From the NCBI GenBank assembly GCA_041484625.1, contig JBGPHY010000003.1, forward strand, positions 1-39,771: a stretch of 39,771 nucleotides of DNA, written 5' to 3'. Of the stretch, positions 939-35,628 are shown in pieces. The DNA comes from Terriglobia bacterium (GTDB lineage: Bacteria > Acidobacteriota > Terriglobia > Versatilivoradales > Versatilivoraceae). The position numbers and the translations under genes are program-made. The notes under the pieces are model-generated. The model ran no database searches and had not been told where the DNA came from. It worked only from the letters and a program-made list of their open reading frames with translations. How positions within the stretch are numbered: position 1 is the stretch's first letter; each line of letters opens with the position of its first letter.

Positions 939-1868
939 TCAGATAGGCTGGTTCTCCTGGCGACTGAGTGCGGTCATGAGATGTTCGCGGGGGTCCACAC
1001 TCTCTCCCTCACGCTGCAACTCGAAGTGCAAATGAGGACCCGTCGAACGGCCCGTACTCCCAACAATTCCAATAACTTCCAGGGATTTGACAACCTGCCC
1101 AGCGGTGACCAGGTTACTGGCAGCATGGGCATAAAGGGTTCGAAATCCGCCTTCATGCTCGATGATTACGGTGTTGCCATAACCTTTCATGGATCCCGAG
1201 TACAGCACAGTTCCAGCCTGAGCCGCCCGAATTGGCGATCCTGTCGAGGCCGCAATGTCCACACCACGGTGAAATCGAGGGTCGTGTGTATACGGATCTG
1301 ATCTCATACCGAAAGAAGAAGCCCATCTCCCCTGCACGGGTAGGCTTAAATCCATTGGATCATGGATGGAATTGTCAAAGGGAGTCTCTGGTTCCGCTGG
1401 AGTTTGAAGTGTGGATTCCGATCGTCGGATTTCCCAGGGTGGAACGGAAGTTTCCTGGTCTTTTCGCGGCAAAGGGGTTCCTGTTGAGTTTATCGCTTGA
1501 GGTCTCTGCCCGGTGGGGCTATCCTTCGAGTTCTCGGACAATTGGCGATACAGCATTTCCCCAATCCCCAGGCTGTGACTCCTGGCAATCTGCAGCCCGA
1601 TCTCCTGGTCAAACATCTCCATGTAAGTTTGCTTTCCAAGGTTGCTTGCCTCCTCATCTGTCTCCTCGACCGTGGAACGCATCACCTTCAGCAAATAGCT
1701 GATGAAAATCCCCTCAAATTCCTGTGTGGCTTTCTTTAGTTCCTCAGCCCGTTTTTCGGTGGAAAGGTTTCTGAGCTGTACTTCACGCGACTGAAGGCTC
1801 TCCAACCCGTGTGTCAGGCCGGCCTCCGACGGGGTAATAGCAGGTCGTGATAATGCATCAAAGTTCAT
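939..1868 (-). CDS. flgJ: FlgJ rod-capping domain fused to an M23-family peptidoglycan endopeptidase
   Basis: N-terminal LKKATQEFEGIFISYLLKVMRST...YMEMFDQEI...SLGIGEMLYRQL (rod-binding domain). C-terminal HRGVDIAA, GYGNTVIIEH, TLYAH and STGPHLHFE (M23 HxxxD/HxH zinc motifs). Follows flgI. Confidence 0.9.
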   Translation of the reverse strand: MNFDALSRPAITPSEAGLTHGLESLQSREVQLRNLSTEKRAEELKKATQEFEGIFISYLLKVMRSTVEETDEEASNLGKQTYMEMFDQEIGLQIARSHSLGIGEMLYRQLSENSKDSPTGQRPQAINSTGTPLPRKDQETSVPPWEIRRSESTLQTPAEPETPFDNSIHDPMDLSLPVQGRWASSFGMRSDPYTHDPRFHRGVDIAASTGSPIRAAQAGTVLYSGSMKGYGNTVIIEHEGGFRTLYAHAASNLVTAGQVVKSLEVIGIVGSTGRSTGPHLHFELQREGESVDPREHLMTALSRQENQPI

Positions 1869-1886
1869 TGCAATTGAAGAGTCTCA

Positions 1887-1902
1887 AGCAGGCTTTGAAC
1901 CA
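1887..1902 (-). promoter_or_regulatory. Sigma54 (-24/-12) promoter candidate for flgJ
   Basis: Minus strand TGGTTCAAAGCCTGCT, exact GG-N10-GC spacing, 19 nt from the ATG. Confidence 0.55.
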
Positions 1903-1995
1903 TAAATCGACACGCCTCGATCGGCAATAAAGCCATCGGCGAAAGATTCTGGTAGACAACCTCCAAACCTTCGATGGACGTCGGAAACCTGGAAC

Positions 1996-3138
1996 TTAAA
2001 TGATCTCTAACTCTGCCTGAAGGGCTCCCGCAGCTTTGATGGCCTGGAAGATCGCCACCATGTCCTTGGGAGTGACTCCCAGCGAATTCAAGGCCTTGAC
2101 CAGATCTTCGACGTTGGCACCGTCTTTGAGCAATACCAGGTTGCTTTGCTTCTCTTGGGCTTTGACCGTTTGTTCAGGAAGGGCTACTGTCTCTCCCACT
2201 CGGCTGAAGGGGGCAGGCTGGGAGACATTGAAGTTGGTCCCAATCTGGATGGAAAGATTTCCCTGGGTGATCGCCACTTCCGAGATGCGCACATCTCTGC
2301 CAATGATCACTGTGCCGGTCCGCTCGTTCAGGACAACCTTCGCTTTGCGGTCCGTAGCAATTTCCACATTCTCGATCTGAGCGATCAACTCCACCAGGTT
2401 GTTTTTGTATTCAGGAGGAACTTGAACACGAACTGTCCTTCCGTCCAAAGACCTTGCTCGGCCCACACCCAGTTTTTGGTTAATCCCGGACTCCATGTGA
2501 CTGATAGTGGTGAAATCATTCTCATTGAGAACCAAATCAAGGTAGTCCTTCTGGAATAGATCCACGGCGACTTCACGCTCTACGATGGCTCCGCTGGGAA
2601 TCCGACCGACGGTTGGATGGTTGACCTGGACTCCGTTGACCGCGTTACCCGCGGAGAAGCCGCCAATAGTGACCGCTCCCTGGGCAACGGCATAAACCAT
2701 GCCGTTCGCCGCCTTAATGGGTGTCTGGACCAGGATCCCACCCTGCAGACTGCGGGCATCCCCTATCGAAGATACAGTGCAATCAATGCGGCTTCCGCTG
2801 CGTACAAAAGGAGAGAGGTCCGCAGTTACCATAACGGCCGCAATGTTTTCGACCCTAATATCCCTGGCTGACACGGTGACTCCCATCCTCTCCAGCATGT
2901 TCAGCAAGCTTTGCGTGGAAAAGATGGTCTGCCGCCGGTCACCTGTCTTGTTCAAGCCGACCACCAGCCCATAGCCCAACAACTGGTTATCCCGTACGCC
3001 CTGAACCCGGGCTACGTCCTTGATTCGCGCATTCGCCGAAGCAAGGGTGACAGAAGCCAAAACGAGACAACCGGCTAGGAAGACGATCTCCCCCAGCCGT
3101 GCCGAACGGAAAGATGGCGCTGCTGCCCAAAATTTCAT
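1996..3138 (-). CDS. flgI: Flagellar P-ring protein FlgI
   Basis: Signal peptide, then ARIKDVARVQGVRDNQLLGYGLVVGL, VSSIGDARSLQGG, NERTGTVIIG and C-terminal AGALQAELEII. Confidence 0.97.
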   Translation of the reverse strand: MKFWAAAPSFRSARLGEIVFLAGCLVLASVTLASANARIKDVARVQGVRDNQLLGYGLVVGLNKTGDRRQTIFSTQSLLNMLERMGVTVSARDIRVENIAAVMVTADLSPFVRSGSRIDCTVSSIGDARSLQGGILVQTPIKAANGMVYAVAQGAVTIGGFSAGNAVNGVQVNHPTVGRIPSGAIVEREVAVDLFQKDYLDLVLNENDFTTISHMESGINQKLGVGRARSLDGRTVRVQVPPEYKNNLVELIAQIENVEIATDRKAKVVLNERTGTVIIGRDVRISEVAITQGNLSIQIGTNFNVSQPAPFSRVGETVALPEQTVKAQEKQSNLVLLKDGANVEDLVKALNSLGVTPKDMVAIFQAIKAAGALQAELEII

Positions 3139-3165
3139 GTCTCACTCCTTTGCGACCCTTTCAAC

Positions 3166-3903
3166 CTAAAACGGCCAGACCTTGGTCAGAGCTCGGTGCA
3201 GCCAACCCGGCTTGAGGTTCTCTGAAAGGATCCCCTTCCCTTCGATTTGAACCAGCATGTTGGCGATAAAGGTGGAGGATACCACATTGTTGGATCCAAT
3301 ATCCTTGGGTCGAACCACTCCGAGGAGAGTTAGCATCTGTCGTTCGTTATTGATCTTGACTTCCTTGATTCCTTCAATAACCAGATCGCCGTTAGGCAGG
3401 ACTTCCTTCACCCTGGCGGAGAGGTATGCAGACAGGGTTCCGGTCCTTTTGGTCGTTCCGTCTCCCTTGAACCCCATGTCGGTGTTGGCGGTGATGAGTT
3501 TGTCAAATCGTAGTGTGTTCTTGGTCTCCACTCCAAAAAGGTTCGGGACCCCAATGGCTGTTGAACTCTTCCGGTTGGTTTGAGAATCTGCCGTGCTCTC
3601 AGCAATGGTAGACTCCTCAACGCGAATCGTGACAATATCGTTCAGCCTTCGAGCCTTAATGTCAGTGTACAGGTCAGAGTTTGTGCCAGCATCGAGATAG
3701 AGTGAACCCTCCGACGATTGTGCGGGGAGTTGGGTGGCTTTGGCCTGACGGATGTACTCTTCCAGGCTGACTGCCACCGGGTTCGGTTTGCTTTTAGGCA
3801 TGGATGAGGGCGCCCAGGCACCCAGCATCAGCAACAGTGCAATTGCTGACCTGCCATGTACTGCAACTCCCAGAAACCTGAGAATGAGAGCCTTCATATT
3901 CAT
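3166..3903 (-). CDS. flgH: Flagellar L-ring protein FlgH (no cysteine, so no lipobox)
   Basis: KARRLNDIVTIRVEE, VKEVLPNGDLVIEG.KEVKIN, GVVRP.DI..NN.V.S..IAN and PGWL....WPF. Start moved to ATG 3903, which has GAGGTGA upstream. Confidence 0.94.
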   Translation of the reverse strand: MNMKALILRFLGVAVHGRSAIALLLMLGAWAPSSMPKSKPNPVAVSLEEYIRQAKATQLPAQSSEGSLYLDAGTNSDLYTDIKARRLNDIVTIRVEESTIAESTADSQTNRKSSTAIGVPNLFGVETKNTLRFDKLITANTDMGFKGDGTTKRTGTLSAYLSARVKEVLPNGDLVIEGIKEVKINNERQMLTLLGVVRPKDIGSNNVVSSTFIANMLVQIEGKGILSENLKPGWLHRALTKVWPF

Positions 3904-3913
3904 TATTCTCACC

Positions 3914-4909
3914 TCAAAAAACAACTCGAGCGGTAGAATGATCAACAACTTCCACCCTTAAAATCTTTTTTGAGTCCAGGTTCATGACCTGGATCCTCCC
4001 TCCACGAACCCCCGATTCCAGCGATTTTGCCTGAGTGGTCAAACGTAGGTTCTCATTCTGGTATACGAGGGTAACGGTATCTCCCCGCTTGATCAGCGGC
4101 ACTGTCATGAGAAGATCCTCATTCAAAATCTGTCCCATCGAAATCAAGGTCCGAGGCTTTTTCCCTTCCAGGATATTGACATCGCGGACTGGTGGATGCA
4201 GGGTTGTGGGCAGGCGCTTCCATTCCAAGCGAAAATCATCCGGACCGATCATGTTCGCCGGTGCGAGTTCTCGAGCTGCCACGGCAACCATATCCTCAAT
4301 GTCCAGGACAGTCCGCAGGAACAACCGTCTGACCATCTCTCTGTCCACGGAGATGTTAACCACCAGGTAGAAAGGGCGAGCCAAGTCGGTCTTAGGCGAA
4401 TATTCGAAGCTGAACGCCACGTTCCCTTCGGGTAACTGAACAGTGTCCGGTACCTCGAGTTTTTCAAGGTGGACCTTTTTCCACGACAATCTAGGAAGGA
4501 ATTCGCGAATCACAGCAGCCTCAATCTCGCCAAAGCTGAGAATCCGAGAGTACCGGACTATCCGGACCTCTTCGGGAATTTCCAAACAGTAGCTTCCCGA
4601 AGTGATTCCAAACACTTCCAGCTTATGCAAGATTTCCGCCTGTGAAAGAGTCTTGGTCTTACCTGCCTGTGGAGCCAGACCCAGAGAAGCTGTTCGCAGT
4701 TGGTTTCGGATTGAAGGATTCACGTCATCCAGCCGCAGGATATCTCCCAGGAACACTTCCCCGCCCTTCACCACCGCCTCGGTTATGCCCAGGATCCTGC
4801 TACAGTCTCGGTGTTCGGAAAAGGCAACTGCGGAGAACCGGAGCGTTCCCAGGACCAAGCAGCACAGGAGTACTAAAATCGTCTTCTTAGTCTGGAAGAA
4901 TCGCTGCAT
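3914..4909 (-). CDS. flgA: P-ring formation chaperone FlgA (long form)
   Basis: Signal peptide, VFLGDI...LGLAPQAG N-terminal domain, SAF-like VAARELAP region, C-terminal LIKRGDTVTLVY...G..I.V.NLDSKK. Lies between flgG and flgH. Confidence 0.92.
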   Translation of the reverse strand: MQRFFQTKKTILVLLCCLVLGTLRFSAVAFSEHRDCSRILGITEAVVKGGEVFLGDILRLDDVNPSIRNQLRTASLGLAPQAGKTKTLSQAEILHKLEVFGITSGSYCLEIPEEVRIVRYSRILSFGEIEAAVIREFLPRLSWKKVHLEKLEVPDTVQLPEGNVAFSFEYSPKTDLARPFYLVVNISVDREMVRRLFLRTVLDIEDMVAVAARELAPANMIGPDDFRLEWKRLPTTLHPPVRDVNILEGKKPRTLISMGQILNEDLLMTVPLIKRGDTVTLVYQNENLRLTTQAKSLESGVRGGRIQVMNLDSKKILRVEVVDHSTARVVF

Positions 4910-4939
4910 TGTCTACCCTCAGATTACCGTCCTTGCCGC

Positions 4940-5728
4940 CTATCTAACCACATTGTTCATCGTTTGCAGCATTTCATCAGCAGTTCTGACCACCTTGGAG
5001 TTGATCTCATAGGCCCGTTGGCCAATGATCATGTTGACCATTTCTTCAACGACACTTACATTCGACTGCTCAAGGAACCCCTGGTTGATGGTGCCGATCC
5101 CATTTTCACCGGCTGGACCAGTAATTGGCTCCCCAGAGGAGGATGTCGGCATAAACAGGTTCTTCCCGACACTGTTTAGGCCCGCGGGGTTCTGAAAAAT
5201 GGCCAATTGAATTGTGCCCACTTGCTGGGCCTGGGATTGTCCCGGCTGAGTCACCGAAACCGTGCCATCTATGCCCACGGTGATAGTCAACGCGTCGTTG
5301 GGGATTGTGATCTGGGGGTCCAGAGGATTTCCGTCGGCCGTCACCATGCTGCCCTCGCGGTTTAAATGGAAAGCGCCGGCACGCGTGTAGGCAATATCGC
5401 CGTTCGGCAACCGCACCTGGAAGAAGCCGTTCCCTTCAATGACCAGGTCCAGCGGATTCCCGGACTGCCGGAAATCCCCCTGTGTAAACAACCGCGAAGT
5501 GGCTACCGGACGTGAGCCTAATCCGACCTGCAGACCCACGGGCAAATCAGTTGAGGTGGAAGAGGCTGCTCCCGAGGCCCGGACGTTCTGATACAAGAGA
5601 TCCTGGAATTCGGTTCGGGCCTGTTTGAACCCCGCAGTGTTCACGTTGGCAAGGTTGTTGGCAATGACGTCAATGTTTAATTGTTGAGCTTCCAGGCCGC
5701 TGGCGGCCGTGTATAATGCGCGAATCAT
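4940..5728 (-). CDS. flgG: Distal rod protein FlgG
   Basis: [80 protein letters not shown]. Confidence 0.98.
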
Positions 5729-5825
5729 TTGTTTCCTCCTAAGTTAGGAGCAGAGCCTTGTAACCCCGCACCTGAATTTACTTGCGAGCAACTGCGCGTC
5801 TTCCGGTCCAAATCGGTCTTCCGCC

Positions 5826-6572
5826 TTAGCCTGTCGGTCGGCCCACCTGGTTGATGGATCGATCATTCATAGTATTCATCATCATCTGGATGGCTTTCTG
5901 CAGGGATTCAAACTGCCGGTTCATAGTAATCAGCAGAGTCATCTGCCGGATCGGGTTCACGTTCGATTGTTCTAGGCTTCCCTGCCGAACGATCAATTCT
6001 TTTGCCTCCAACTCCTTGAGCTGTGGATCAGGATTGCGGAACAAGGATCCTTCTGACTTCTCTAGTTTGCTTTTGTCTGCAAAGTCCACAATCTTGAGAG
6101 TGTCCACCCTTGCCCCATTGACCTCGAAGTCTCCCGTCTGGGAGACGTTCACGCTTCCTTTCGGGAGGCGGATCGAGCCCTTTTTCCCCTGCACAGCAAA
6201 TCCCTTCGAGGTTGCAAGTTGTCCTTTGGAGTCGACCTGAAGATTCCCATTGCGGGTGTAACGGGTGCCGTTGGGAGTCTCGACGGTAAAGAATCCAGGT
6301 CCTTCCAAAGCGAGGTCCAGGTCGCGACCTGTCACCATCAGTGGGCCGGCGCGGTAGTCAGTGGCAGCTCCTTCCACAACTGAGGAGTCATTGATCACCC
6401 GGTCGAGTGGCGCTACCGAGCTTTCCGCCAATGCGCGGTTGTAGACCCGGAAGAATGACTCATCTCCCTTAAACCCGGTGGTATTTACGTTGGCCAGGTT
6501 GTTAGAAAGCACCTCCAGCATATCGGCCAATGCCCGAAGGCCCGAGTACGAAGAATACAATCCGCTATCCAT
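5826..6572 (-). CDS. flgF: Proximal rod protein FlgF
   Basis: [47 protein letters not shown]. Directly upstream of flgG. Confidence 0.93.
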   Translation of the reverse strand: MDSGLYSSYSGLRALADMLEVLSNNLANVNTTGFKGDESFFRVYNRALAESSVAPLDRVINDSSVVEGAATDYRAGPLMVTGRDLDLALEGPGFFTVETPNGTRYTRNGNLQVDSKGQLATSKGFAVQGKKGSIRLPKGSVNVSQTGDFEVNGARVDTLKIVDFADKSKLEKSEGSLFRNPDPQLKELEAKELIVRQGSLEQSNVNPIRQMTLLITMNRQFESLQKAIQMMMNTMNDRSINQVGRPTG

Positions 6573-6609
6573 AGGTCAGCTCCGACAGTCTAGTGTCGCC
6601 CTTATAACT

Positions 6610-6625
6610 AGCAGGTTCGTTTCCA
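6610..6625 (-). promoter_or_regulatory. Sigma54 promoter candidate for the flgF operon
   Basis: Minus strand TGGAAACGAACCTGCT (GG-N10-GC), 38 nt upstream of the ATG. Confidence 0.65.
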
Positions 6626-6754
6626 TTGTGGATCCAGTCCTCCGATTAGGCTCGCGCCAAGCTTGATCCACACTAAACTACAATGAAGACAGCTTTCCGT
6701 TGGAATTCCTTTCCCGTAGAGTCCGGTTATGATTTGTGCGGAGTTCTCTCGCCC

Positions 6755-6797
6755 GGCAAATTTGGCTCGGCGGCTACTTGACTGGGCAATTCTTACC
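6755..6797. promoter_or_regulatory. Candidate upstream activator sites (GGCAA-type 13-bp boxes) for the flgF promoter
   Basis: GGCAAATTTGGCT (6755-6767) and GGCAATTCTTACC (6785-6797), 130-170 nt upstream of the -24 box. Similar boxes precede flgD and flgB. Confidence 0.4.
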
Positions 6798-6809
6798 CAC
6801 GTCAAACTC

Positions 6810-7676
6810 TCAGCCCGACTGGTCATCTGATTGGAGTTGAATGACCGGGACATGCTCCACCACAAGATCTTCAGTTTCGGCCCCGGCTCCGAACCGCGAC
6901 CAGACTAGCTGATGAAAGTAACCGACATTGAGCGACTTCGCATGGGTATCCCTGGCTCGTTCCACGATCATGGAAGAAATCTCAATCAAATCGCTCGAAA
7001 ATGAGTCAGCCAGAGACTCGGTTGACCCCTCAGGCACGCTCGTGGATGAGATGACCTGTTGAATCAACTGCCTGACTGCATCCTCATCCCCAAGATAAAT
7101 CGAGAGATCGCAGTTCAGGATACCCCGCAGGTTGATCATGGACGGAATGACACTCGGATCGTAAGTCACCAGCAGCAGCGAATTGCTGGTTGTGTCATAG
7201 TCCACCGGCAGAAATTTCAATCGCTGTATGATTGCGGCTGGAACCATGCTCATGGCCTTAGGGCTTGACCGCAGGTTGATGAGATTAATAACAGGAAGCG
7301 AAAACTGGCGGCTTAGTGCCATGGTGATGTCCCGTTCCTTGATGAATCCCATGCTCTGAAGGTAGTGCCCCAGCCTCTCTTCTCCCTCCTTCGGGTGCGG
7401 GTTCGTGTCTTTCTGCTGCTCGGCCAAAGCTAGGTCCAGTTGTTCCTTTGTGATCACTCCGTTCTGGAGCAGGAGGAAACCAAAGCGGGTCCGGTTTGAC
7501 ACTATGCCGGATTTGTCTTTTGGCCGGCTCGACTTCTCAAGGCGCTGCAGGATTCCGGTCTCCAGACAAGGCTCACTGCAGTACCAGTGTGTTTCCATGT
7601 AATAGCCCGGTTTCTTGCTAACCCGCTGCCGAAACCAATTCAGACGGTTTTCGCAACTGGCGTTTTGACAATTCAT
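6810..7676 (-). CDS. Cys4 zinc-finger-like + MshEN (c-di-GMP-binding) + T2SSE/PilB N-terminal-like domain protein, no ATPase domain
   Basis: CQNASC...WYCSEPC at the N-terminus. Tandem motifs RFGFLLLQNGVITKEQLDLALAEQ and RLGHYLQSMGFIKERDITMALSRQ match RLGxxLxxxGxIxxxxLxxALxxQ. Then FSLPVINL...VPAAIIQRLKFLPV...LLLVTYDPS, as in GspE/PilB N-domains. No Walker A motif. Confidence 0.85.
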   Translation of the reverse strand: MNCQNASCENRLNWFRQRVSKKPGYYMETHWYCSEPCLETGILQRLEKSSRPKDKSGIVSNRTRFGFLLLQNGVITKEQLDLALAEQQKDTNPHPKEGEERLGHYLQSMGFIKERDITMALSRQFSLPVINLINLRSSPKAMSMVPAAIIQRLKFLPVDYDTTSNSLLLVTYDPSVIPSMINLRGILNCDLSIYLGDEDAVRQLIQQVISSTSVPEGSTESLADSFSSDLIEISSMIVERARDTHAKSLNVGYFHQLVWSRFGAGAETEDLVVEHVPVIQLQSDDQSG

Positions 7677-8235: not shown

Positions 8236-8523
8236 TTAAGTACCCAGGGACCTGATTCTTTCCGCTGGGCTTTCGACCTGTGTGACGCGAATAGCGTAGT
8301 GGCCATCTGCAACTACCACTTCGCCCCGGGCCAACAGCCTGTTATTGACAAGGAGATCGACTGGTTCTTCTGCCGTGCGATCCAATTCAATCACTGATCC
8401 ATTTCCGAGTTTCAAAATGTCCTCGAGAAGCATCTCGGTCTGACCAAAGCGCACAGAGAGCGGGAGGTCAATATCCATGATGAGATCCAGGTTGACATTA
8501 GAGTCTTTGACCGCTTCGTCCAT
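8236..8523 (-). CDS. fliN: C-ring protein FliN (copy adjacent to fliM)
   Basis: NLDLIMDIDLPLSVRFG, LKLGNGSVIELDRTAEEPVDLLVN..LLARGEVVV. Confidence 0.95.
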   Translation of the reverse strand: MDEAVKDSNVNLDLIMDIDLPLSVRFGQTEMLLEDILKLGNGSVIELDRTAEEPVDLLVNNRLLARGEVVVADGHYAIRVTQVESPAERIRSLGT

Positions 8524-8547
8524 AGTCTTCCTTCTCCTGACCTGATT

Positions 8548-9603
8548 TCAAACGCTCGTTTCCGTGATGTCCAGGACCTTCACTGCCTTGTGATCCCGCC
8601 GGATGACTGCAGTACTCAAGAACTTCGGCTTTCCCCCGACATGAACGATAACTTTGTCGGTCGGAGTTCGGTCCAGCTTAATGACGTCACCGGGCTGAAT
8701 GGTGAGCAAATCTCTGACCGCGACGGTCCCGCCCGCAAATTCGGCTGAAACGGGGAGCCGCAGCATACTCAATGTCCTGCAAACTCTTCTCAAGTCTTCC
8801 TTGATGTTGCCTCGACCGCGTTCGCTGATCTCCTGCTCGAAATTCCCGCTGATCGGCTCGAGGGCAACAAATGGGACACACAGGTGCATCGTGCTTCGGG
8901 TCTCTCCAATCTTGACCTCAAATATAATCAGGATGACTACCTCATTGGCCGCGACCACCTGGAGCAATTGGGATCGGGTCTCGCTGGCGCGGAAGGAAAA
9001 ATCAATGAGAGATACCGGACGCCAAGTCTCCGCCAGGTTCGCCGTGATCAGTTTGACGACTCCCTGAATGATGTTTTTTTCAATTTCGGTGATGTTTCGG
9101 GTCAACTTCAGGACGCTGCCTGTTCCTCCCAGCAACCGGTCAATAATGGGAAACACAAGCTCCAGATTCATTTCCAGGGCTGCCATCCCATTCAGCGGCT
9201 TAATGCTGATGGCGCTGTAGTAGGTTGGATCAGACAAGGAGAGCAGAAACTCGGCGTAGGTAGTCTGTTCCACCGAAATCAGGCTAACTTCGGTCACGCT
9301 CCGCAGGTACGCCGACAGGGAAGAAGAGATATTGGTGCAGAACTTGTCGTGCAGGAATTGAAGTGAACGCAGCAGTGCTTTCGGAACGCGGTCAGGGCGG
9401 CGGAAGTTGTAGACTGTGACTCTCTTATTAATTCCGTATTGGCCAACGTAAGGTATCCTGGGGGGAGCAGTTCTGTCGGAAGACTGCGGGGTGGATGAAC
9501 TTGCGGTGCTGGCCAAAGCTTCCGCATTTTTGGAGGCCTCAGCCGGGGTATTGATCGACTTCAACAGAACATCCACTTCGTCTTGCGACAGAATCTTGTT
9601 CAT
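8548..9603 (-). CDS. fliM: Motor switch protein FliM
   Basis: ILSQDEVDVLL CheY-binding peptide, YNFRRPDR, IIDRLLGG.G, C-terminal SpoA domain. Confidence 0.97.
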   Translation of the reverse strand: MNKILSQDEVDVLLKSINTPAEASKNAEALASTASSSTPQSSDRTAPPRIPYVGQYGINKRVTVYNFRRPDRVPKALLRSLQFLHDKFCTNISSSLSAYLRSVTEVSLISVEQTTYAEFLLSLSDPTYYSAISIKPLNGMAALEMNLELVFPIIDRLLGGTGSVLKLTRNITEIEKNIIQGVVKLITANLAETWRPVSLIDFSFRASETRSQLLQVVAANEVVILIIFEVKIGETRSTMHLCVPFVALEPISGNFEQEISERGRGNIKEDLRRVCRTLSMLRLPVSAEFAGGTVAVRDLLTIQPGDVIKLDRTPTDKVIVHVGGKPKFLSTAVIRRDHKAVKVLDITETSV

Positions 9604-9611
9604 GTTACTCC

Positions 9612-10520
9612 CTAACCTGAGTGCTTGGGCTCCTGGGTGTCAGCCGGGCCAAACAAGACATTCCAAGCCAATCCTCCAGCTTCGGTCTTGTGGTTCCCGA
9701 ACTCTTGATGAAGCTTTTTCGCCAGATTCGTGAGACAGCGGGAGGCCGAGGCCTCTGGCAGCATATTAACCACAGGCAGCTGGTTTCGGACCGCTTCGAT
9801 TACATTGGGATCACGTTCAATGTAGCCAAACAATTCCAAGGGCTTATCGAGGAACCGGCGGGAGGCCGCGTCAATCTGGCGAAAAACACTCTGAGCTTCA
9901 CGTCGATCCACTACCGAATTCACCAGGATGTACACTTTCTTATGGGATTCCCGATGAGCCAGGATCTTGACGACCAGATAGGCATCGACAATGGCCGTCG
10001 GATCAGGAGCAGTGACCACGATGACCACACCTGCTGCCAGCAGGAGGTTGATCACGTTGCTGGAAATTCCCGCTGCTGTGTCGATAAGGAGATAATCCGT
10101 GTCGGCCCCAAGCTGGGATAAGCCCCGGATGAGCTTAACCTGTTGGTCGGCCGTCAGAGCCGTCATCCGCTCAATCCCCGAGCTAGCCGGAATGATGCGA
10201 ATGCCACTCGGCCCGTCCACCACAATTTCCTCCAACGCTTTGTCCCCGTATAGAAAATCACTCAAGTTATAGCGAGGAGCTAAGCCTAGGAGCACGTCGA
10301 TATTGGCCATGCCAAAGTCTGCATCCAAGACCAGCACCCGCTTGCCCATATTGGCCAGGGAGACTGCCAGATTGGCAACAACGTTGGTTTTCCCTACTCC
10401 CCCCTTGCCGCTGGTGATGGCGATGGCAACCGGTTGATGCCCGCCGGGAACAGGAATCCCGGAAGGCTCCAATCCGGACACTCTGACCGCTTCTCTGAGA
10501 ACGAAAGCTTGATCGTACAT
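9612..10520 (-). CDS. flhG: MinD-like flagellar number regulator FlhG/FleN
   Basis: ITSGKGGVGKTN deviant Walker A, LDADFGMANIDVLLG, IDTAAGIS, PDPTAIVDAY. Follows flhF. Confidence 0.95.
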   Translation of the reverse strand: MYDQAFVLREAVRVSGLEPSGIPVPGGHQPVAIAITSGKGGVGKTNVVANLAVSLANMGKRVLVLDADFGMANIDVLLGLAPRYNLSDFLYGDKALEEIVVDGPSGIRIIPASSGIERMTALTADQQVKLIRGLSQLGADTDYLLIDTAAGISSNVINLLLAAGVVIVVTAPDPTAIVDAYLVVKILAHRESHKKVYILVNSVVDRREAQSVFRQIDAASRRFLDKPLELFGYIERDPNVIEAVRNQLPVVNMLPEASASRCLTNLAKKLHQEFGNHKTEAGGLAWNVLFGPADTQEPKHSG

Positions 10521-10527
10521 TCCGAGT

Positions 10528-11865
10528 TCACCTCGCTCCCGCGCAAAGTTCGATGGCTTTTCGATGACCCTGGGTACTCACCGGGCGAGTCGGTGTCGGC
10601 ATTCCAACAAAAGTCTCCCAAGTCACATCCCCCATCCCCAGGGTCAAGCTCACCAGTTTTCCAGGATTGGGATTTAGGATGTCTCTGGGGACGTTTTGAC
10701 CTACCGTGACATACGCGAGCGGTTGTCCTGCTCGCAAGAGTTCATTGAATAGCTGACCGTACGTCTCCGTTTCATCCAGCTTTGTTACGATTACTGAGTT
10801 AGGTCCGAAAATCGTGTAGCGTTTCATAAGGTCGGATAAATCAGTCTGCTTCGTGGTGGCACTCAAGACGAGTGATTTATGAATGTGCTGAGACTGACTG
10901 AAGAATTGCGCAATCTCCGGCTGGGCCCCCAACTCCCGATGACCGCGACCTGCTGTGTCAATCAGAATCAAGTCCTTTGAGCCAAATTCCCCGATCGCTC
11001 CTCTCATCTGTGGAATTGTCTCGACCACCTTCGTGGGGATCCCGATGATTTCGGCATAGGTTTTCAATTGTTCGATGGCGGCAATTCGGAATGTGTCGAG
11101 AGTAATGAGCCCTACGTCCAGCTGGTCTTCCAATACGGCCCGGGCTGCCAGCTTAGCCAAGGTGGTGGTTTTTCCCACCCCGGTCGGTCCAACAAAGGCA
11201 ATTACTCGCGGACCCTTCCCGGGCCGTTCCTTGATCAGGTCCTTGGCTACCTTGAGCCGACGAGTCAAAGTCATCGCTGCTTTACGCTTCAGAGCTGCCT
11301 TCGCTGCCGGCGTCTTGGCACTTCCTCGGTGGGCGGTGCCGCTAATCAAGTCGTGAGCCAGTTCTTCATCAAGTCCCCGTGATACCAGGTCAGCATAGAC
11401 CTCAGCGCAAATTGTGTGCGAGAACGGGTGTGACATGCGCGAGATTGCAGGACGCGAGCGCTCTGATGACTCCGGCCTGGCCTGGATCATGTTCTTCAGC
11501 GAACGGATTTCGTCCAGCATGGTCTGGATTCCGACCGGGGGAAGAAGCTCCGACACGACAGGGCTCAGTTCAACTGGGGCGTGGGCTGGCTTGCTGCTGT
11601 TCCCCCGCTTGACCGCCTCTTCTGAAAACTGGACGTGGTCCTGAGATTTTTCTGTTTCCAGGGCAGGAGTGCGAACAGAGAGCTCCTCTTCATTGCCATG
11701 ATCCACAGCCGCTGTCACTTCAAAGACCCGCTTACCAAAGACTCCCAGTATCTTTTTCGGCTTGATTTCTTTGCCACTCAGGATGAAGGCGTCAGGCCCT
11801 AGGTCCTTCTTGATTTCTTCAAGAGCCTGCTTCATTGTCGGAGCACGATAGGTTTTCACTTTCAT
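10528..11865 (-). CDS. flhF: SRP-type GTPase FlhF
   Basis: MKVKTYRA.TM..AL..IK.DLG.DA.IL, GPTGVGKTTTLAKLAA, DTAGR, TKLDET, GQNVPRDI. Confidence 0.97.
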   Translation of the reverse strand: MKVKTYRAPTMKQALEEIKKDLGPDAFILSGKEIKPKKILGVFGKRVFEVTAAVDHGNEEELSVRTPALETEKSQDHVQFSEEAVKRGNSSKPAHAPVELSPVVSELLPPVGIQTMLDEIRSLKNMIQARPESSERSRPAISRMSHPFSHTICAEVYADLVSRGLDEELAHDLISGTAHRGSAKTPAAKAALKRKAAMTLTRRLKVAKDLIKERPGKGPRVIAFVGPTGVGKTTTLAKLAARAVLEDQLDVGLITLDTFRIAAIEQLKTYAEIIGIPTKVVETIPQMRGAIGEFGSKDLILIDTAGRGHRELGAQPEIAQFFSQSQHIHKSLVLSATTKQTDLSDLMKRYTIFGPNSVIVTKLDETETYGQLFNELLRAGQPLAYVTVGQNVPRDILNPNPGKLVSLTLGMGDVTWETFVGMPTPTRPVSTQGHRKAIELCAGAR

Positions 11866-11867
11866 GA

Positions 11868-13949
11868 CTAGCTAACCATTCCTAGAGAGATGACTTTGAC
11901 ATTGTTTGGCACTTCGTTGTGCGACAGGATGACGAGGTTGGGAAACATCCGTTCGGTTAACCGTCTCAATTGACTTCGAACATTGGCGGAAGTCAGCAAA
12001 ACCATCTTGGATTGAGCCATGGCCCCCTGGAAAGTGTTGTGGATTTTCTGCAACATGGATTGAATGGCCTTGGGGTCCAGGATCAAGTATGAGCCTTTGT
12101 CAGTGTGGGTGATCCCTTTAGAAATGATCTGCTCAAGGTCTGGACTCAGAGTAAAGAGCAGAATCTCCTCCTGTTCATTTTGGACAGACCGGCAGATGGA
12201 GCGCCCTAACGCCTGGCGCACGTACTCGGTCAACAGATCAGTGTCTTTGGTCATTACTCCAAAATCGGCCAGGGTCTCCAGGATGGTCGACAAATCCCGG
12301 ATGGACACTCGCTCCCGAAGCAGATTTTGCAGTACCTTTTGTATTTCGCCCAGGGACAGAACCTTGGGTACGGTTTCCTCTATCAATTTGGGGTGCGTCT
12401 CGTTCAAGTGATCGAGCAGGCCTTTAGCCTCCTGCCGTCCCAGCAGTTCAAAAGCGTGGGTCTTCAGAATCTCTGAAAGATGAGTAGCAACAACGGTGGT
12501 CGGATCCACCACTGTGTACCCGGACAACTGGGCGCGGTCTTTGTCATGGGGCTTAATCCACAGTGCCGGCAACCCGAAAGTGGGATCCTGGGTGGAAATG
12601 CCGGGCAGTGTCTCCCGGGCGGACCCCCCATTGATCGCCAGGAAGCTGTCCACATTTAACTCTCCGCGTGTAATCTCCACTCCCTTAAGCAGGAAGGAGT
12701 ACTCCTTCGGATTCAATTGCAGGTTGTCGGTGATGTGAATTGGCGGGATGATGACTCCGAGTTCAAGCGCCAATTGCCTGCGGATAGCTTTGACCCGGTT
12801 CAGGAAATCTCCCCCCTGGGTGGTATCCACCAGGCTGATCAGCCCGTATCCTACTTCAATCGCAAGAGTGTCGACTTTTAACAGGGACTCAATTCTTTCC
12901 GGAGGCAGCGCCTTCCGAGCTTGTTCATCCTTTTGTTTTTGAACCAGGAGAGCCGATTCTTTGCTCTTGATGTTGGAGAAATAGGCAATGATGCCAGTCA
13001 CGACGGCGAGAAAGAAGAAGGCCAGCTTTGGCAAACCGGGAACCAATGCAAATCCAAAAAGGACCCCCGCCCCAATTGCAACGGGCCGTGGGTTGAGCAG
13101 GAGCTGGCGAGAAACGTCTTCGCCCAGGTTGGACTCGGACGCAGCCCGTGTAGTGATCAAACCTCCCGAAACGGAGATCAATAGAGCGGGAATGGCGGTG
13201 ACCAGGCCGTCCCCGATGGTCAGCACGGTGAAGGTCTGCAGCGCCTGAATCAGTTCCATTTTGTGTTGAACGAGCCCGATGACGATGCCGGCGAATATAT
13301 TAATGCTGGTGATGATGATGGTGGCTACCGCATCCCGCTGCGTAAACTTGATAGCTCCGTCCATCGCCCCGTAAAACTCCGCTTCCCTCTGAATCTGCCT
13401 GCGGCGCTCTTTGGCCTCGGTTTCGTTGATCAGCCCGGAGTTCAAATCTGCATCAATAGACATCTGCTTTCCGGGCATGGCATCTAATGTGAAGCGGGCA
13501 GTCACTTCGGCAATTCGCGTTGCACCGTGGTTGATGACAATGTATTGGATAGCCAGCAACACCAGGAAGATCACAATGCCGACGACATAGTTTCCACCAA
13601 TCACAAACTGACCAAAGGACTGGATGACATGGCCGGCAGCAGCGAAACCCTCGTTGCCCCGGAGAAGGATGAGCCGGCTGGCCGCAATGTTCAGTGACAA
13701 GCGAAAGAGGGTAATCATCAATAATAATGAAGGGAAGACCGAGAAGCTGACCGGCTGATCGATGTACATGGATGAAAGCAATATGATGACTGAAAGCGTG
13801 ATATCCAGAGTAATCAGAAGGTCCAGCAACAGTGAAGGCAGTGGAACAATCATCACAGCAATAATGCAAACCACAGCCACCGGCATTACGAGATGAGAGT
13901 TCTTCGATAGCTTGGACAAAACCGATGATGTAAGCGTGCTCGTTTCCAT
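11868..13949 (-). CDS. flhA: Export gate protein FlhA
   Basis: FPSLLL..TLFRLSLN, RIAEV.ARFTLDAMPGKQMSIDADL, FYGAMDGA.KF, LTIGDGLV. Confidence 0.99.
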   Translation of the reverse strand: METSTLTSSVLSKLSKNSHLVMPVAVVCIIAVMIVPLPSLLLDLLITLDITLSVIILLSSMYIDQPVSFSVFPSLLLMITLFRLSLNIAASRLILLRGNEGFAAAGHVIQSFGQFVIGGNYVVGIVIFLVLLAIQYIVINHGATRIAEVTARFTLDAMPGKQMSIDADLNSGLINETEAKERRRQIQREAEFYGAMDGAIKFTQRDAVATIIITSINIFAGIVIGLVQHKMELIQALQTFTVLTIGDGLVTAIPALLISVSGGLITTRAASESNLGEDVSRQLLLNPRPVAIGAGVLFGFALVPGLPKLAFFFLAVVTGIIAYFSNIKSKESALLVQKQKDEQARKALPPERIESLLKVDTLAIEVGYGLISLVDTTQGGDFLNRVKAIRRQLALELGVIIPPIHITDNLQLNPKEYSFLLKGVEITRGELNVDSFLAINGGSARETLPGISTQDPTFGLPALWIKPHDKDRAQLSGYTVVDPTTVVATHLSEILKTHAFELLGRQEAKGLLDHLNETHPKLIEETVPKVLSLGEIQKVLQNLLRERVSIRDLSTILETLADFGVMTKDTDLLTEYVRQALGRSICRSVQNEQEEILLFTLSPDLEQIISKGITHTDKGSYLILDPKAIQSMLQKIHNTFQGAMAQSKMVLLTSANVRSQLRRLTERMFPNLVILSHNEVPNNVKVISLGMVS

Positions 13950-13980: not shown

Positions 13981-14192
13981 ACCGGTACACGGAACAGGAT
14001 TCTGAAAATGGTGGAGACTCCTGTAATTCATTGATTGTCCATAGGTTGCAGTTGAACTGAAAAAACCTTCAGCCCGGGTGATATGACCCACCCATTCTTG
14101 CCAGAATTTTGTCAGTCCAGGGACTGCAAGCGTCAAAATCTAGGCGCGCATTTGCTGTGGAATTGGAGAGTGATGCTCTGAGTTGTGAATCC

Positions 14193-14642
14193 CGAATATA
14201 CGACGAAACCATTCGTCGGGCCAGAAGCGATGGCCCTATGGATACCAAGCGGCTCGAATCCACCGAGGGTGAACACCTGCAGACCATGGATATCCTCAGC
14301 GATTTCTACCATGACAAACGGCAGGTGTTCTCCGCCAACCTTCCCAACAGTGGCGCGGTTGATAACTTACCAAAGGATGCGATTCTGGAACTGCCGGCCG
14401 TTTCCACCCAGGAAGGCATGATTCCCCTGCCTGTCGGGGAATTGCCCGTACCGATCACGGCGGTATTACTGAGACGTTTGGCGGCCGTGGAGGCCGCAGT
14501 GGAAGCAGCTCTGACCGGAAACCGGAAGGTAATGGCAGAGGCCTTGATTCTGGATGGCGGAGTCAGTGATTACAGCACTGCCCAAGAACTGACCGAGGCC
14601 CTGATAAAAGCCCAGGCTGTGCACTTGCCCCAGTTTGCCTGA
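14193..14642 (+). pseudogene. 3' remnant of a family 4 glycoside hydrolase (alpha-galactosidase/glucosidase type)
   Basis: ANLPNSGAVDNLPKDAILELPA..., GELP, VEAALTGNRK.MAEAL.LD and C-terminal HLPQF match the GH4 C-domain. The N-terminal NAD-binding domain is absent and there is no room for it. The 5' boundary is approximate. Confidence 0.8.
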
Positions 14643-17649: not shown

Positions 17650-18399
17650 TTAGTTTCGCAGGTTCCTGCGGATCTCGGCCAACCGGGAGACAACCTGGCT
17701 GGGTTCTCTGTGTCTCAAGTCACTGTTTTCTTTGTGCCTCACTTCCAGGATCTCCCGGAAGCTGGGACTGCGGGGCAAACGCTTCATGGCTCCATGCCTG
17801 CCGGATCCGACCATTGAAGTCCCCCAACCGGAGGAGAGTGACTTTGCGACCTGCAGAAATCTTTGAGGTAGAGATTTTTCCGCCGCTTGCATACCATGAG
17901 CAGGAGTCGACCCAGATACCTCTTCAGTAAGAAACTCAACTCCAGGAACCGGGATCCTTTCAAGAACTGAGATGGAGCTGGATGTGCAGCCAATCAGGAG
18001 ATGGTCGCCACCGACTTTGACAATGTTCAGGTTCCTCTTCTCTCCTAGGGAAACCGTTTCCAGAATCTGGATCCATTTCCGCTTGCCGGCCGTCCCGAAC
18101 TGACCGGAAAGATATTTCCTCAGCATAAACGCAGCAGCGAAGAATAAGGACAGGACCAGAAGGAAGACTCCTAAAACTCTTAGCCCAGTCATGACAAACC
18201 CTCGCTCCTCTGTCTCTGCAATGGCCATGGCCTGGGCCGGTAGTCTTGCTGAGGTTGAAATCGGGTTCCCGCAGCGAATCCATTCCAACCGGGTTACTCC
18301 GCCAGGAATAATAGGTCTGGCTGCACTGTAGTCAGAAAGCCCCAGGATTCCGACCACAATTAGAATTGTCCGCAATTGGATATTTAAACCGCTAGCCAT
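17650..18399 (-). CDS. fliO: FliO/FliZ-family export chaperone with long N- and C-terminal extensions
   Basis: TM helix, then IQILETVSLGEKRNLNIVKVGGDHLLIGCT..SISVL. Between fliN and fliP. ATG 18399 overlaps the end of the upstream gene. Confidence 0.85.
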   Translation of the reverse strand: MASGLNIQLRTILIVVGILGLSDYSAARPIIPGGVTRLEWIRCGNPISTSARLPAQAMAIAETEERGFVMTGLRVLGVFLLVLSLFFAAAFMLRKYLSGQFGTAGKRKWIQILETVSLGEKRNLNIVKVGGDHLLIGCTSSSISVLERIPVPGVEFLTEEVSGSTPAHGMQAAEKSLPQRFLQVAKSLSSGWGTSMVGSGRHGAMKRLPRSPSFREILEVRHKENSDLRHREPSQVVSRLAEIRRNLRN

Positions 18400-18721
18400 T
18401 GTGGTCCGCCAGTTCATTGATCTTGATCCCGACCTTGTCCTCGATAATCACTACTTCGCCCCTTCCCAAAAATACCCCGTTGATAAAAATGTCCAGACTA
18501 TTGCCAACGGGCTTGTCGAGTTCAATGACGGAATGGTAGCCGAGTTTAAGCAAGTTCGACAGCTTCAACGTGCTGCGGCCCAGCTCGATGGAAAGCTTCA
18601 GAGGGACAGAGGCAAAAGGTTTCAATGCCTGCTGTTCCTCGGCCATTTCTACGAGGACTTCATCTTCGCGAATCCCTGCGGTTCCCGTTTCCTGGTCGTG
18701 ATCATGCTCTTCCGGGATCAT
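18392..18721 (-). CDS. fliN: Second FliN-like (SpoA domain) protein
   Basis: VPLKLSIELGR, LLKLGYHSVIELDKPVG, GRGEVVIIEDKVGIKI, with an acidic N-terminus. Confidence 0.88.
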   Translation of the reverse strand: MIPEEHDHDQETGTAGIREDEVLVEMAEEQQALKPFASVPLKLSIELGRSTLKLSNLLKLGYHSVIELDKPVGNSLDIFINGVFLGRGEVVIIEDKVGIKINELADHNG

Positions 18722-19357: not shown

Positions 19358-19373
19358 TGCAATGGGGCTACCA
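19358..19373 (-). promoter_or_regulatory. Sigma54 promoter for the fliL-flhB operon
   Basis: Minus strand TGGTAGCCCCATTGCA, close to TGGCAC-N5-TTGCA, 49 nt upstream of the ATG. Confidence 0.75.
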
Positions 19374-21372: not shown

Positions 21373-21388
21373 AGCATCAGCAGTACCA
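21373..21388 (-). promoter_or_regulatory. Sigma54 promoter for flgDE
   Basis: Minus strand TGGTACTGCTGATGCT (GG-N10-GC), 39 nt upstream of the ATG. A GGAAAATTCTGCC box lies at 21502-21514. Confidence 0.72.
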
Positions 21389-35283: not shown

Positions 35284-35628
35284 ATGCTTTCCAGTCGGAA
35301 TGTACCTACCGCCGGTCGGCGAGCTGCGAAGCGGGTCAACCTGAGAATTCCATTTCATGTGTATGGTCGTGACGAGAACGGCGCAACTTTCCAAAGCCGT
35401 GCCGAAACCGTCAATGTCAGCAGCAAGGGAGGATGCCTAGTTCTGGATAAGGACCCGATCCGGGGGCAGAATTTAAAGATCGTCGGACCCAAGGGGGCGG
35501 CGTTCATCGCCCGGGTCTGCTGGTCGAATTATGTAATGAGGAAGAATATCCGCTTCGTCGGCTTTGCCCTGACACGCTTTGGAAGAGAGTGGGTACTCAT
35601 CGACAAGAACCACTCGTTCCCCCGCTAG
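35284..35628 (+). CDS. Stand-alone PilZ-domain protein (c-di-GMP receptor)
   Basis: RxxxR (RAAKR) and [D/N]xSxxG (NVSSKG) motifs, followed by ARVCW...VGFAL beta-barrel strands. Confidence 0.85.
   Translation: MLSSRNVPTAGRRAAKRVNLRIPFHVYGRDENGATFQSRAETVNVSSKGGCLVLDKDPIRGQNLKIVGPKGAAFIARVCWSNYVMRKNIRFVGFALTRFGREWVLIDKNHSFPR

Follow-up and report, generated by a model that had tools for sequence, protein, structure and literature searches.

Introduction

MshEN domains sense the signal molecule c-di-GMP (cyclic dimeric GMP) through a motif of 24 residues, RLGxx(L/V/I)(L/V/I)xxG(L/V/I)(L/V/I)xxxxLxxxLxxQ, which occurs in tandem and has the relaxed form [RKPN]hGxxhhxx[GAS]hhxxxxhxxxhxx[QNKRYWST], with a spacer of 5 residues between the two copies in Vibrio cholerae MshE (Wang et al. 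2016, PMC5013675). Besides the pilus and secretion ATPases, the domain is known fused to REC, HD-GYP, CheA, CheX, cyclases and kinases, and it is found in the E. coli glycosyltransferase NfrB (PMC5013675). At the flagellum, the PilZ-type effectors YcgR/PlzD/FlgZ/MotI are small cytoplasmic c-di-GMP receptors which contact the rotor (FliG/FliM) or the stator (PMC9303241). Here a gene, called X below, was analysed in a stretch of 39,771 nucleotides (nt) from a Terriglobia bacterium (assembly GCA_041484625.1, contig JBGPHY010000003.1, positions 1 to 39,771), the whole of which is referred to as the window. X encodes a protein of 288 amino acids (aa) with a Cys4 module, an MshEN domain and a C-terminal module, lies at the end of a flagellar operon, and is a candidate c-di-GMP receptor of the flagellum. 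What is understood of how c-di-GMP controls swimming comes, to our knowledge, almost wholly from Proteobacteria and Firmicutes, where PilZ proteins and transcription factors exert this control.

Domain architecture and the c-di-GMP site

Two near-consensus MshEN motifs had been claimed for X in the first-pass annotation, which was made from the sequence alone, and both were confirmed. Both forms of the PMC5013675 motif, strict and relaxed, were satisfied by motif I (R64-Q87), whose position 2 is F. In motif II (R101-Q124) none of the six key positions was lost, position 17 being I, and the sole deviation was Q107 at the hydrophobic position 7. The NCBIfam model NF053729 ('c-di-GMP_motif') matched residues 64-124 with 45.6 bits against a cut-off of 38, and Pfam MshEN (PF05157) matched residues 125-210 with an E value of 8.9e-9 and 35.7 bits against a cut-off of 23.1. 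The closest solved relative by sequence was the N-domain of Geobacter PilB (E about 3e-17, X residues 61-211), in agreement with the GspE/PilB-like N-domain annotated before; in the alignment the spacer of Geobacter PilB (5tsg) was 6 residues shorter than that of X.

Conservation was scored in alignment A2, made of 80 of 103 proteins (240-350 aa) with the N-terminal pattern C-x(2-4)-C ... C-x3-C, and the motif positions 1, 2, 3, 17, 21 and 24 were counted as c-di-GMP contacts. All six were kept in 34 of the 80 members for motif I and in 54 for motif II, and five or six of them in 72 and 75 members. For motif I and motif II respectively, Gly was found at position 3 in 77 and 76 members, and position 24 had Gln in 68 and 76; position 17 was L/I/V/M in all 80 for both motifs. 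Position 1 was P, R or K in 75 members for motif I (33, 27 and 15) and R, K or N in 62 members for motif II (43, 14 and 5), all within the relaxed motif. PF05157 matched 74 of the 80 members at E ≤0.1. Judged by the E values and the conservation of the family, the architecture of X is far beyond chance.

The inter-motif linker, described earlier as unusually long with 13 residues, has exactly this length in X but is no family trait: the spacer is 5-6 residues long in 70 of the 80 members and 13 residues long in 6 of them. The 13-residue spacer is a quirk of the window's sub-clade. It can be regarded as a variable loop and no bar to MshEN membership, curated models being tolerant of insertions. 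By every feature that could be tested in the sequence, the spacer aside, X carries a bona fide MshEN domain, and we infer that it would bind c-di-GMP. As for supply of the signal, the genome of the window (93.8% complete, 897 contigs) encodes at least 10 GGDEF matches.

No ATPase domain was present, since X ends at residue 288 and MshEN was its sole match in Pfam and NCBIfam, where weak matches to the MshEN part of NfrB were also obtained. Against the PilB equivalog TIGR02538 it reached 47.7 bits with a cut-off of 675.65, which places it outside the MshE/PilB/GspE ATPases. A PilZ match (E ≤0.1) was found neither in X nor in any of the 80 family members.

The N-terminal Cys4 module proposed before was present, with the residues M-N-C3-Q-N-A-S-C8 and W31-Y32-C33-S34-E-P-C37, in the spacing C3-x4-C8 ... 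W31-Y32-C33-S34-x2-C37. The module is a putative zinc-binding site. The acidic linker and the short C-terminal alpha/beta domain could also be located, at about residues 211-224 and 225-275 in the model described below, and the C-terminal module is presumed to serve for output or docking. In the Pfam scan the N- and C-terminal modules matched no family in the 80 members, and a profile search gave no PDB sequence family for the C-terminal module. Residues 213-288 reached a best score of 0.76 in the protein-atlas search, with no family assigned.

Predicted structures

An AlphaFold model of X was built with 20 homologues (mean predicted local distance difference test score, pLDDT, 77.6; predicted template modelling score, pTM, 0.72). 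From the N-terminus it consisted of a Cys-bearing helix, beta-hairpin and helix (residues 1-50), a four-helix MshEN_N bundle, MshEN_C (139-211), an acidic disordered linker and the module of residues 225-275, with the long spacer as a disordered loop within the MshEN_N bundle. The model matched c-di-GMP-bound MshE (5htl_B) in VIA-align with a Z score of 15.5 and a root-mean-square deviation of 3.0 Å over 136 residues. In Foldseek the MshEN part matched c-di-GMP-bound MshE (5htl) and Thermus PilF (E 5.8e-9, target template modelling score 0.77). A distant member of the family, with 18% identity to X, was modelled as well (pLDDT 88.8, pTM 0.84); this second model had the identical layout and matched the c-di-GMP-bound structures 8pdk and 5htl with Z scores of 11.7 and 11.5. 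The fold of X is accordingly modelled as an MshEN_N four-helix bundle with an MshEN_C subdomain.

For the terminal modules no convincing known fold was obtained in either model. A likeness of the N- and C-terminal modules of the first model to the anti-sigma proteins RsbW/SpoIIAB/UsfX (GHKL-like; Z 6.2-6.8, 72-74 residues) was dropped, being absent from the better second model and within the noise range of the tool. The C-terminal module of the second model gave generic beta-alpha-beta-beta-beta matches (BsmI, glyoxalase halves, Rel) with Z scores of 5-6, also in the noise range. A complex prediction of FliM, FliN and X with c-di-GMP scored 0.00 against a mark of 0.32; it was made without controls and counts neither way.

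A family of X proteins

X was not a single oddity. A word-indexed search returned 22 further proteins of 158-289 aa with 41-83% identity, all without a name, whose sole labelled source was a Terriglobia metagenome-assembled genome (MAG). All of 1.84 billion representatives were then searched with a profile, with 16,690 matches at E ≤1e-3, chiefly ordinary MshEN proteins, and among the best 150 of these 16,690 many were 260-350 aa long and aligned over their full length in a single stretch. Look-alikes in the protein atlas were 'hypothetical protein' clusters of 349, 128, 100 and 58, most commonly from Acidobacteriota, to which the family appears to be largely confined.

In alignment A1, 12 rows have a complete N-terminus, and every one of them keeps the four Cys; the shorter A1 entries, which begin at the equivalent of M27 or later, are short gene calls or fragments. 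In A2 the Cys residues are invariant by construction, because its members were picked by the Cys pattern. Alignment A7, with 34 genome-derived sequences found by profile and independent of that pattern, had C29 and C33 in every row and kept C2 and C7 in 90% of the rows or more. In the C-terminal motif W259-x-R261, Trp was invariant and Arg was kept in at least 90% of 33 sequences.

A quick maximum-likelihood tree was made for the MshEN region (156 rows, midpoint-drawn and unrooted). One branch, with 98% support in the Shimodaira-Hasegawa-like approximate likelihood-ratio test (SH-aLRT), divided 59 ATPase-linked, tandem or other MshEN proteins, together with one long-branch X row, from all remaining family rows. 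The 'non-family' rows nested among the family rows were short or N-terminally truncated copies which had been removed by the Cys filter. The tree is compatible with a single origin of the X family. That X might be a truncated pilB was rejected: X occurs once in the genome, where a PilB-like frame of 581 aa lies apart from it on a different contig, and the 98% SH-aLRT branch splits the two groups but for the one long-branch X row.

Linkage to flagellar genes

The co-occurrence of X with flagella was surveyed in 401 Acidobacteriota genomes, of which G024, G049 and G152 enter only the denominators. The best 150 profile matches were listed, with 844 weaker ones beyond, and a match was taken as full-length X when it started at profile position 18 or before and ended at 257 or after, which gave 47 listed matches in 47 genomes. 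FliM (PF02154) was found in 87 of the 401 genomes, and 46 of the 47 genomes with a listed full-length X were FliM-positive. In 41 of the 47 listed copies X lay within 5 kilobases (kb) of fliM on the same contig.

For 41 close relatives the table of X and FliM was complete (all 91 rows covered). Nine genomes had both, three had FliM without X, 29 had neither, and none had X without FliM. Among the 25 genomes of the window's own family, the six FliM-positive ones were precisely the six with X, and in one genus a single genome had X and FliM and two genomes had neither. Homologues in non-flagellated relatives, which in the first-pass annotation would have spoken against a flagellar role, were looked for and not seen in these relatives (0 of 29 FliM-negative genomes); the sole exception among the 47 listed copies was that of genome G335.

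The neighbourhood analysis of homologues that had been suggested earlier also gave flagellar linkage. A pattern scan of GTDB species genomes found five X loci in Acidobacteriota or Terriglobia MAGs (27-67% identity), all five in flagellar clusters between fliM/fliN and flgF/flgA. The order fliM-fliN-X was seen in 22 of 22 re-fetched loci; these had been picked for proximity to fliM, so the new information is the position of fliN and the order. In family f3, when the longest frame is taken, X adjoins the end of fliN or overlaps it. Flagellar or chemotaxis Pfam domains were encoded within 1.5 kb of X in 21 of 29 loci, and 4 of the remaining 8 (L010, L023, L024 and L033) have fliM within 5 kb by coordinates, three of these four being GC-rich (rich in guanine and cytosine) with no called open reading frame (ORF) that had a Pfam match. 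A scan of metagenome contigs with A1 gave 16 X loci, 13 with flagellar structural genes beside X and 3 on contigs of 1.2-1.6 kb which held only X and the FipA-like gene described below. A pilus or type II secretion system (T2SS) gene was not found beside X in any locus examined.

Some further neighbours and relatives were observed. CheX and CheY-like genes directly flank X in L009, L015, L021 and L027. In two genomes an HDOD-domain gene stands between fliN and the pair of FipA-like gene and X (L038:2296-3249 (-) and L046:2717-3634 (+)). Frames about 300 aa long which match the MshEN part of the profile only are present in flagellated genomes of family f33 (G036:C1:2293356-2293793, G139:C1:1021454-1021873 and G311:C1:1649346-1649798), and their products may be different stand-alone MshEN proteins.

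Organization of the locus in the window

The coordinates of X, its modules and its neighbours are given in Table 1. X is the last gene of flhA-flhF-flhG-fliM-fliN-(FipA-like)-X and stands just upstream of flgF. Listed in the order of transcription, and all on the minus strand, the genes are one for a sensor kinase, one for a sigma-54-type response regulator, then flgB-like, flgC, fliE, fliF, fliG, fliH, fliI, fliJ, fliK, flgD, flgE, fliL, a first fliN-like gene, fliO, fliP, fliQ, fliR, flhB, flhA, flhF, flhG, fliM, fliN, the 170-aa gene, X, a 237-nt spacer, flgF, flgG, flgA, flgH, flgI and a gene for a FlgJ-like rod-binding/M23 protein. The absence of an ATPase and of pilus or T2SS genes nearby, as annotated before, was upheld, with none among the 44 window ORFs scanned against Pfam.

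The start codon of X is 26 nt past the stop codon of the upstream gene, the distance given earlier, when the minus strand of X had gone unstated. In the spacer between X and flgF no sigma-70, sigma-54 or sigma-28 consensus and no terminator was found on the minus strand, and its folding z-score was 0.06. Window-wide, the counts of promoter and terminator matches were not above those of shuffles, and Rfam gave 0 matches. Since the gap is 26 nt and no promoter or terminator signal was seen around X, co-transcription of X with the upstream genes is plausible.

Table 1. Position of gene X, its modules and neighbouring flagellar genes in the window
Feature	Coordinates	Strand	Basis and remarks
Gene X, Cys4 / MshEN / C-terminal-module protein, 288 aa	6810..7676 (stop codon included)	minus	ORF and translation, ATG start
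Cys4 module, residues 1-50, putative zinc site	7527..7676	minus	C3, C8, C33, C37; WYCSxxC; helix, beta-hairpin, helix in the model
MshEN motif I, residues 64-87, RFGFLLLQNGVITKEQLDLALAEQ	7416..7487	minus	Translation; NCBIfam NF053729; motif definition of PMC5013675
Spacer between motifs, 13 residues, Q88-E100	7377..7415	minus	Translation; disordered in the model, pLDDT <50 at residues 92-99
MshEN motif II, residues 101-124, RLGHYLQSMGFIKERDITMALSRQ	7305..7376	minus	Translation; NF053729; family statistics
MshEN_C alpha/beta subdomain (GspE/PilB N-domain), residues 125-210	7047..7304	minus	Pfam PF05157; fold match to 5htl
Acidic, Ser-rich linker, residues 211-224	7005..7046	minus	Translation and model (low confidence)
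C-terminal beta-alpha-beta-beta-beta module, residues 225-275, W259-x-R261	6852..7004	minus	Two models; family conservation
flhA (11868-13949), flhF (10528-11865), flhG (9612-10520)	9612..13949	minus	Pfam FHIPEP, SRP54, ParA/MinD family
fliM (8548-9603), fliN (8236-8523)	8236..9603	minus	Pfam FliM, FliMN_C
FipA-like neighbour, 170 aa	7703..8215	minus	Pfam DUF6115/DUF2802
X-flgF spacer, 237 nt, no recognisable signal	6573..6809	minus	Promoter, terminator, Rfam and folding scans
flgF, flgG, flgA, flgH, flgI, flgJ-like	939..6572	minus	Pfam

Other features of the cluster were noted. Two FliN-type genes are present, one of 109 aa between fliL and fliO (18392-18721, minus strand) and one of 95 aa after fliM (8236-8523, minus strand); the FliN copy next to fliM has 270-330 aa in other Acidobacteriota and is extended at its N-terminus by a part without Pfam match. 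Sigma-54-like -24/-12 matches with 2 mismatches each lie in intergenic DNA before fliL (19358-19373, minus strand) and before flgD (21373-21388, minus strand), not above chance window-wide, and positions 30412-33110 hold the genes of a sensor kinase and a sigma-54 activator. The FlgJ-like protein (939-1868, minus strand) has rod-binding and M23 peptidase domains and no further Pfam domain. In the 819-nt gap between flhB and flhA, an ORF of 177 aa (14109-14642, plus strand) matched PF11975, the C-terminal domain of family-4 glycosyl hydrolases, with an E value of 4e-22, and looks like a gene fragment stranded in the flagellar cluster. Beside the cluster, a 114-aa ORF (35284-35628, plus strand) had a weak PilZ match (E 1.3e-3, below cut-off) and may encode a second receptor for c-di-GMP close to the flagellar genes.

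The FipA-like neighbour

The gene directly upstream of X, recorded at first as a plain DUF protein, was re-identified as FipA-like. FipA, a membrane protein with DUF2802, is the FlhF-binding polarity factor of Vibrio, Pseudomonas and Shewanella, and in FipA of V. parahaemolyticus (VpFipA) G110, E126 and L129 are fully conserved, with G110 and L129 needed for FlhF binding (PMC11620751). The 170-aa protein of the window has an N-terminal hydrophobic transmembrane helix, a coiled coil and a C-terminal DUF6115/DUF2802 region, which matched DUF6115 with 32.2 bits (cut-off 27) and DUF2802 with 28.7 bits, below the cut-off of 33.5. In 11 acidobacterial copies G130 never varies, and 90% of the copies or more keep E146 and L149, in the same 16 + 3 spacing as in VpFipA. 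The 170-aa protein shares with FipA the transmembrane helix, the coiled coil, the conserved G...E..L and the encoding together with flhF and flhG. It differs in that DUF2802 is below and DUF6115 above the cut-off, that FipA is described from gamma-proteobacteria, and that the acidobacterial gene lies between fliN and X. If the neighbour is FipA, this family of FlhF partners would be extended from gamma-proteobacteria to Acidobacteriota.

Among the loci of X, the FipA-like gene is the immediate upstream neighbour in at least 10 of the 22 from GTDB and in 13 of the 16 from metagenomes. That it is an obligate partner was rejected: its profile, which is short and of limited sensitivity, matched in none of the five X-positive genomes of family f3, and FipA-like genes are present in three FliM-positive genomes without X.

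Proposed role of X

X could be a flagellum-dedicated MshEN-type c-di-GMP receptor which works as a stand-alone adaptor, with the FliM/FliN C ring as favoured target, a proposal to which we give about an even chance. It starts from what is established for X, namely its domain anatomy with two conserved extra modules and no enzymatic domain, the conservation of its contact positions in an apparently intact MshEN site, its conserved place in flagellar operons and its co-occurrence with flagellar genes, X being gained and lost along with the flagellum. The four-helix MshEN_N bundle formed by motifs I and II would bind one c-di-GMP, and the bound ligand would shift the MshEN domain against the Cys4 and C-terminal modules. 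These two modules would dock on a cytoplasmic part of the basal body, most likely the FliM/FliN C ring, so that at high c-di-GMP flagellar assembly or rotation might be lowered or re-set. We infer the target and the sign of the effect; the C ring is favoured because fliM and fliN are the only constant neighbours and because some members of the family have an X frame that adjoins fliN or overlaps it. The dedicated flagellar sensor or adaptor of the first-pass annotation thus kept its flagellar linkage, its co-occurrence and its conserved contact residues, and the long spacer proved to be no family trait.

A number of observations weigh against this proposal. In the site itself, motif II deviates at position 7 (Q107), the spacer has 13 and not 5 residues, and only 9 of the 80 members fit the full relaxed expression in both halves, which speaks against a perfect site; the low number arises chiefly because positions 7 and 10-12 deviate. 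With at least 7 matches above the cut-off, PilZ is also present in the genome, so X need not be the c-di-GMP sensor of the motor. Genome G335, which is 100% complete, has a complete copy of X without a FliM match (locus L019, G335:C5:246666-250499). Around this copy lie genes for regulators of the Crp and OmpR types and one with a TIG domain, and it may have been retained or re-purposed after flagellum loss. X and fliM are on different contigs in five further genomes (G400, G350, G324, G090 and G392); the neighbours of X are def/fmt or an EamA transporter gene in G350 and G324, and flgF and flgG in G400. X was found in none of the five complete FliM-positive genomes of family f33, is missing from 3 of the 12 FliM-positive relatives, and is therefore not universal in flagellated Acidobacteriota. 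In addition, X is grouped with early structural genes, and known flagellar brakes are expressed late. Gene position alone cannot separate the C ring from FlhF/FlhG/FipA or the export gate.

A possible, though less probable, form of the proposal is that X is a stoichiometric component of the basal body, seated on FliM/FliN or on an FlhF/FipA initiation complex, by which the organelle itself would sense c-di-GMP via MshEN. The chief rival, though rather unlikely, is that the receptor acts on FlhF/FlhG/FipA, and so on the place and number of flagella, by gating the initiation of assembly, as c-di-GMP-bound TipF does in Caulobacter, and not on a finished motor. X does close an operon carrying flhF and flhG and is grouped with early genes, and the FipA-like gene stands directly upstream in the window and in the GTDB and metagenome loci counted above, with the residues that bind FlhF in DUF2802 (PMC11620751) conserved; but the short FipA-like profile found nothing in the five X-positive f3 genomes, the three X-negative, FliM-positive genomes with FipA-like genes indicate that the genes are separable, and the constant upstream neighbours are fliM and fliN. 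An accessory of the flagellum independent of c-di-GMP, with the MshEN fold as a protein-binding module like the GspE/XpsE N-domain with GspL or the PilB N-domain with PilZ, is improbable. Solved relatives include such partner-binding N-domains (EpsE-EpsL, 2bh1; PilB-PilZ, 7lkm), XpsE of Xanthomonas campestris pv. campestris has lost c-di-GMP binding (PMC5013675), and few members fit the full motif in both halves. However, five or six contact positions are kept in most of the 80 members, NF053729 is above its curated cut-off, and none of the inactivating changes listed for XpsE in PMC5013675 is present in X.

Control of expression was considered as well, with X as a c-di-GMP-responsive regulator whose Cys4 finger would bind DNA or RNA and act on flgF onward or on other flagellar genes. 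The 237-nt untranslated spacer ahead of flgF and the Crp-type and OmpR-type regulator genes beside X in one genome would fit such a role. The signature C...WYCSxxC presumably resembles FCS/TRASH, a likeness without support from a Pfam match. A nucleic-acid-binding family was matched in none of the 80 members, however, and the spacer showed neither conserved structure nor any recognisable signal; this role is quite improbable. Very improbable is a coordinator of flagellum and type IV pilus, which would compete for PilB partners or c-di-GMP and suppress pilus assembly during swimming: the closest sequences with solved structures are PilB N-domains and the same genomes have PilB-like genes, but PilB-type matches occur in 377 of the 401 genomes of the phylum and X tracks FliM, not PilB, with no pilus gene beside it in any locus examined. 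With the flagellum-dedicated receptor at the C ring as the favoured reading, X is probably an undescribed coupling of c-di-GMP to swimming, as far as sequence comparison can tell.

Significance

If this is true, X would represent a new effector class for the motile-to-sessile switch, and would offer a testable handle on the regulation of motility in Acidobacteriota, which are abundant bacteria of soil and sediment. MshEN, the second widespread c-di-GMP sensor domain, is here found outside pilus and secretion ATPases and joined to two undescribed modules; one of these would be a small output domain of a new type, and through its partner a surface of the basal body at which the flagellum is regulated could come to light. 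Should X be a basal-body component, it would be the first effector of c-di-GMP dedicated to the flagellum that belongs to none of three groups, PilZ proteins, transcription factors and degenerate GGDEF/EAL proteins, and it would define a new zinc-bound output module.

Comparison with known systems

The first-pass annotation knew of no characterised flagellar component with this architecture. In line with this, the literature on MshEN with flagella, Acidobacteria, zinc and motility gave no description of X among the papers listed, at the level of titles and abstracts; the supplementary architecture tables of PMC5013675 might list it. New here are this MshEN architecture and its recurrence in the flagellar operons of many Acidobacteriota, MshEN fusions and PilZ motor brakes being already known.

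With the ATPases MshE/PilB/PilF/GspE (V. cholerae MshE, 5htl; Thermus PilF, 8pdk; Geobacter PilB, 5tsg) X shares the two-motif four-helix bundle and the alpha/beta subdomain. It differs from them in lacking the T2SSE ATPase, in being encoded in a flagellar cluster outside pil/gsp operons, and in adding the Cys4 and the C-terminal beta-alpha-beta-beta-beta modules, with a spacer of 13 residues in the window copy. The non-ATPase MshEN proteins likewise use MshEN as a portable c-di-GMP input, and their link to chemotaxis is known at the level of domain architecture (PMC5013675), whereas the partner modules of X match no described family, have no enzymatic output and are tied to flagellar structural operons. 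YcgR/PlzD/FlgZ/MotI have the same job as is proposed for X, but the sensor fold of X is unrelated to theirs, and X is encoded inside the fliM-fliN operon, in a family that appears to belong largely to Acidobacteriota.

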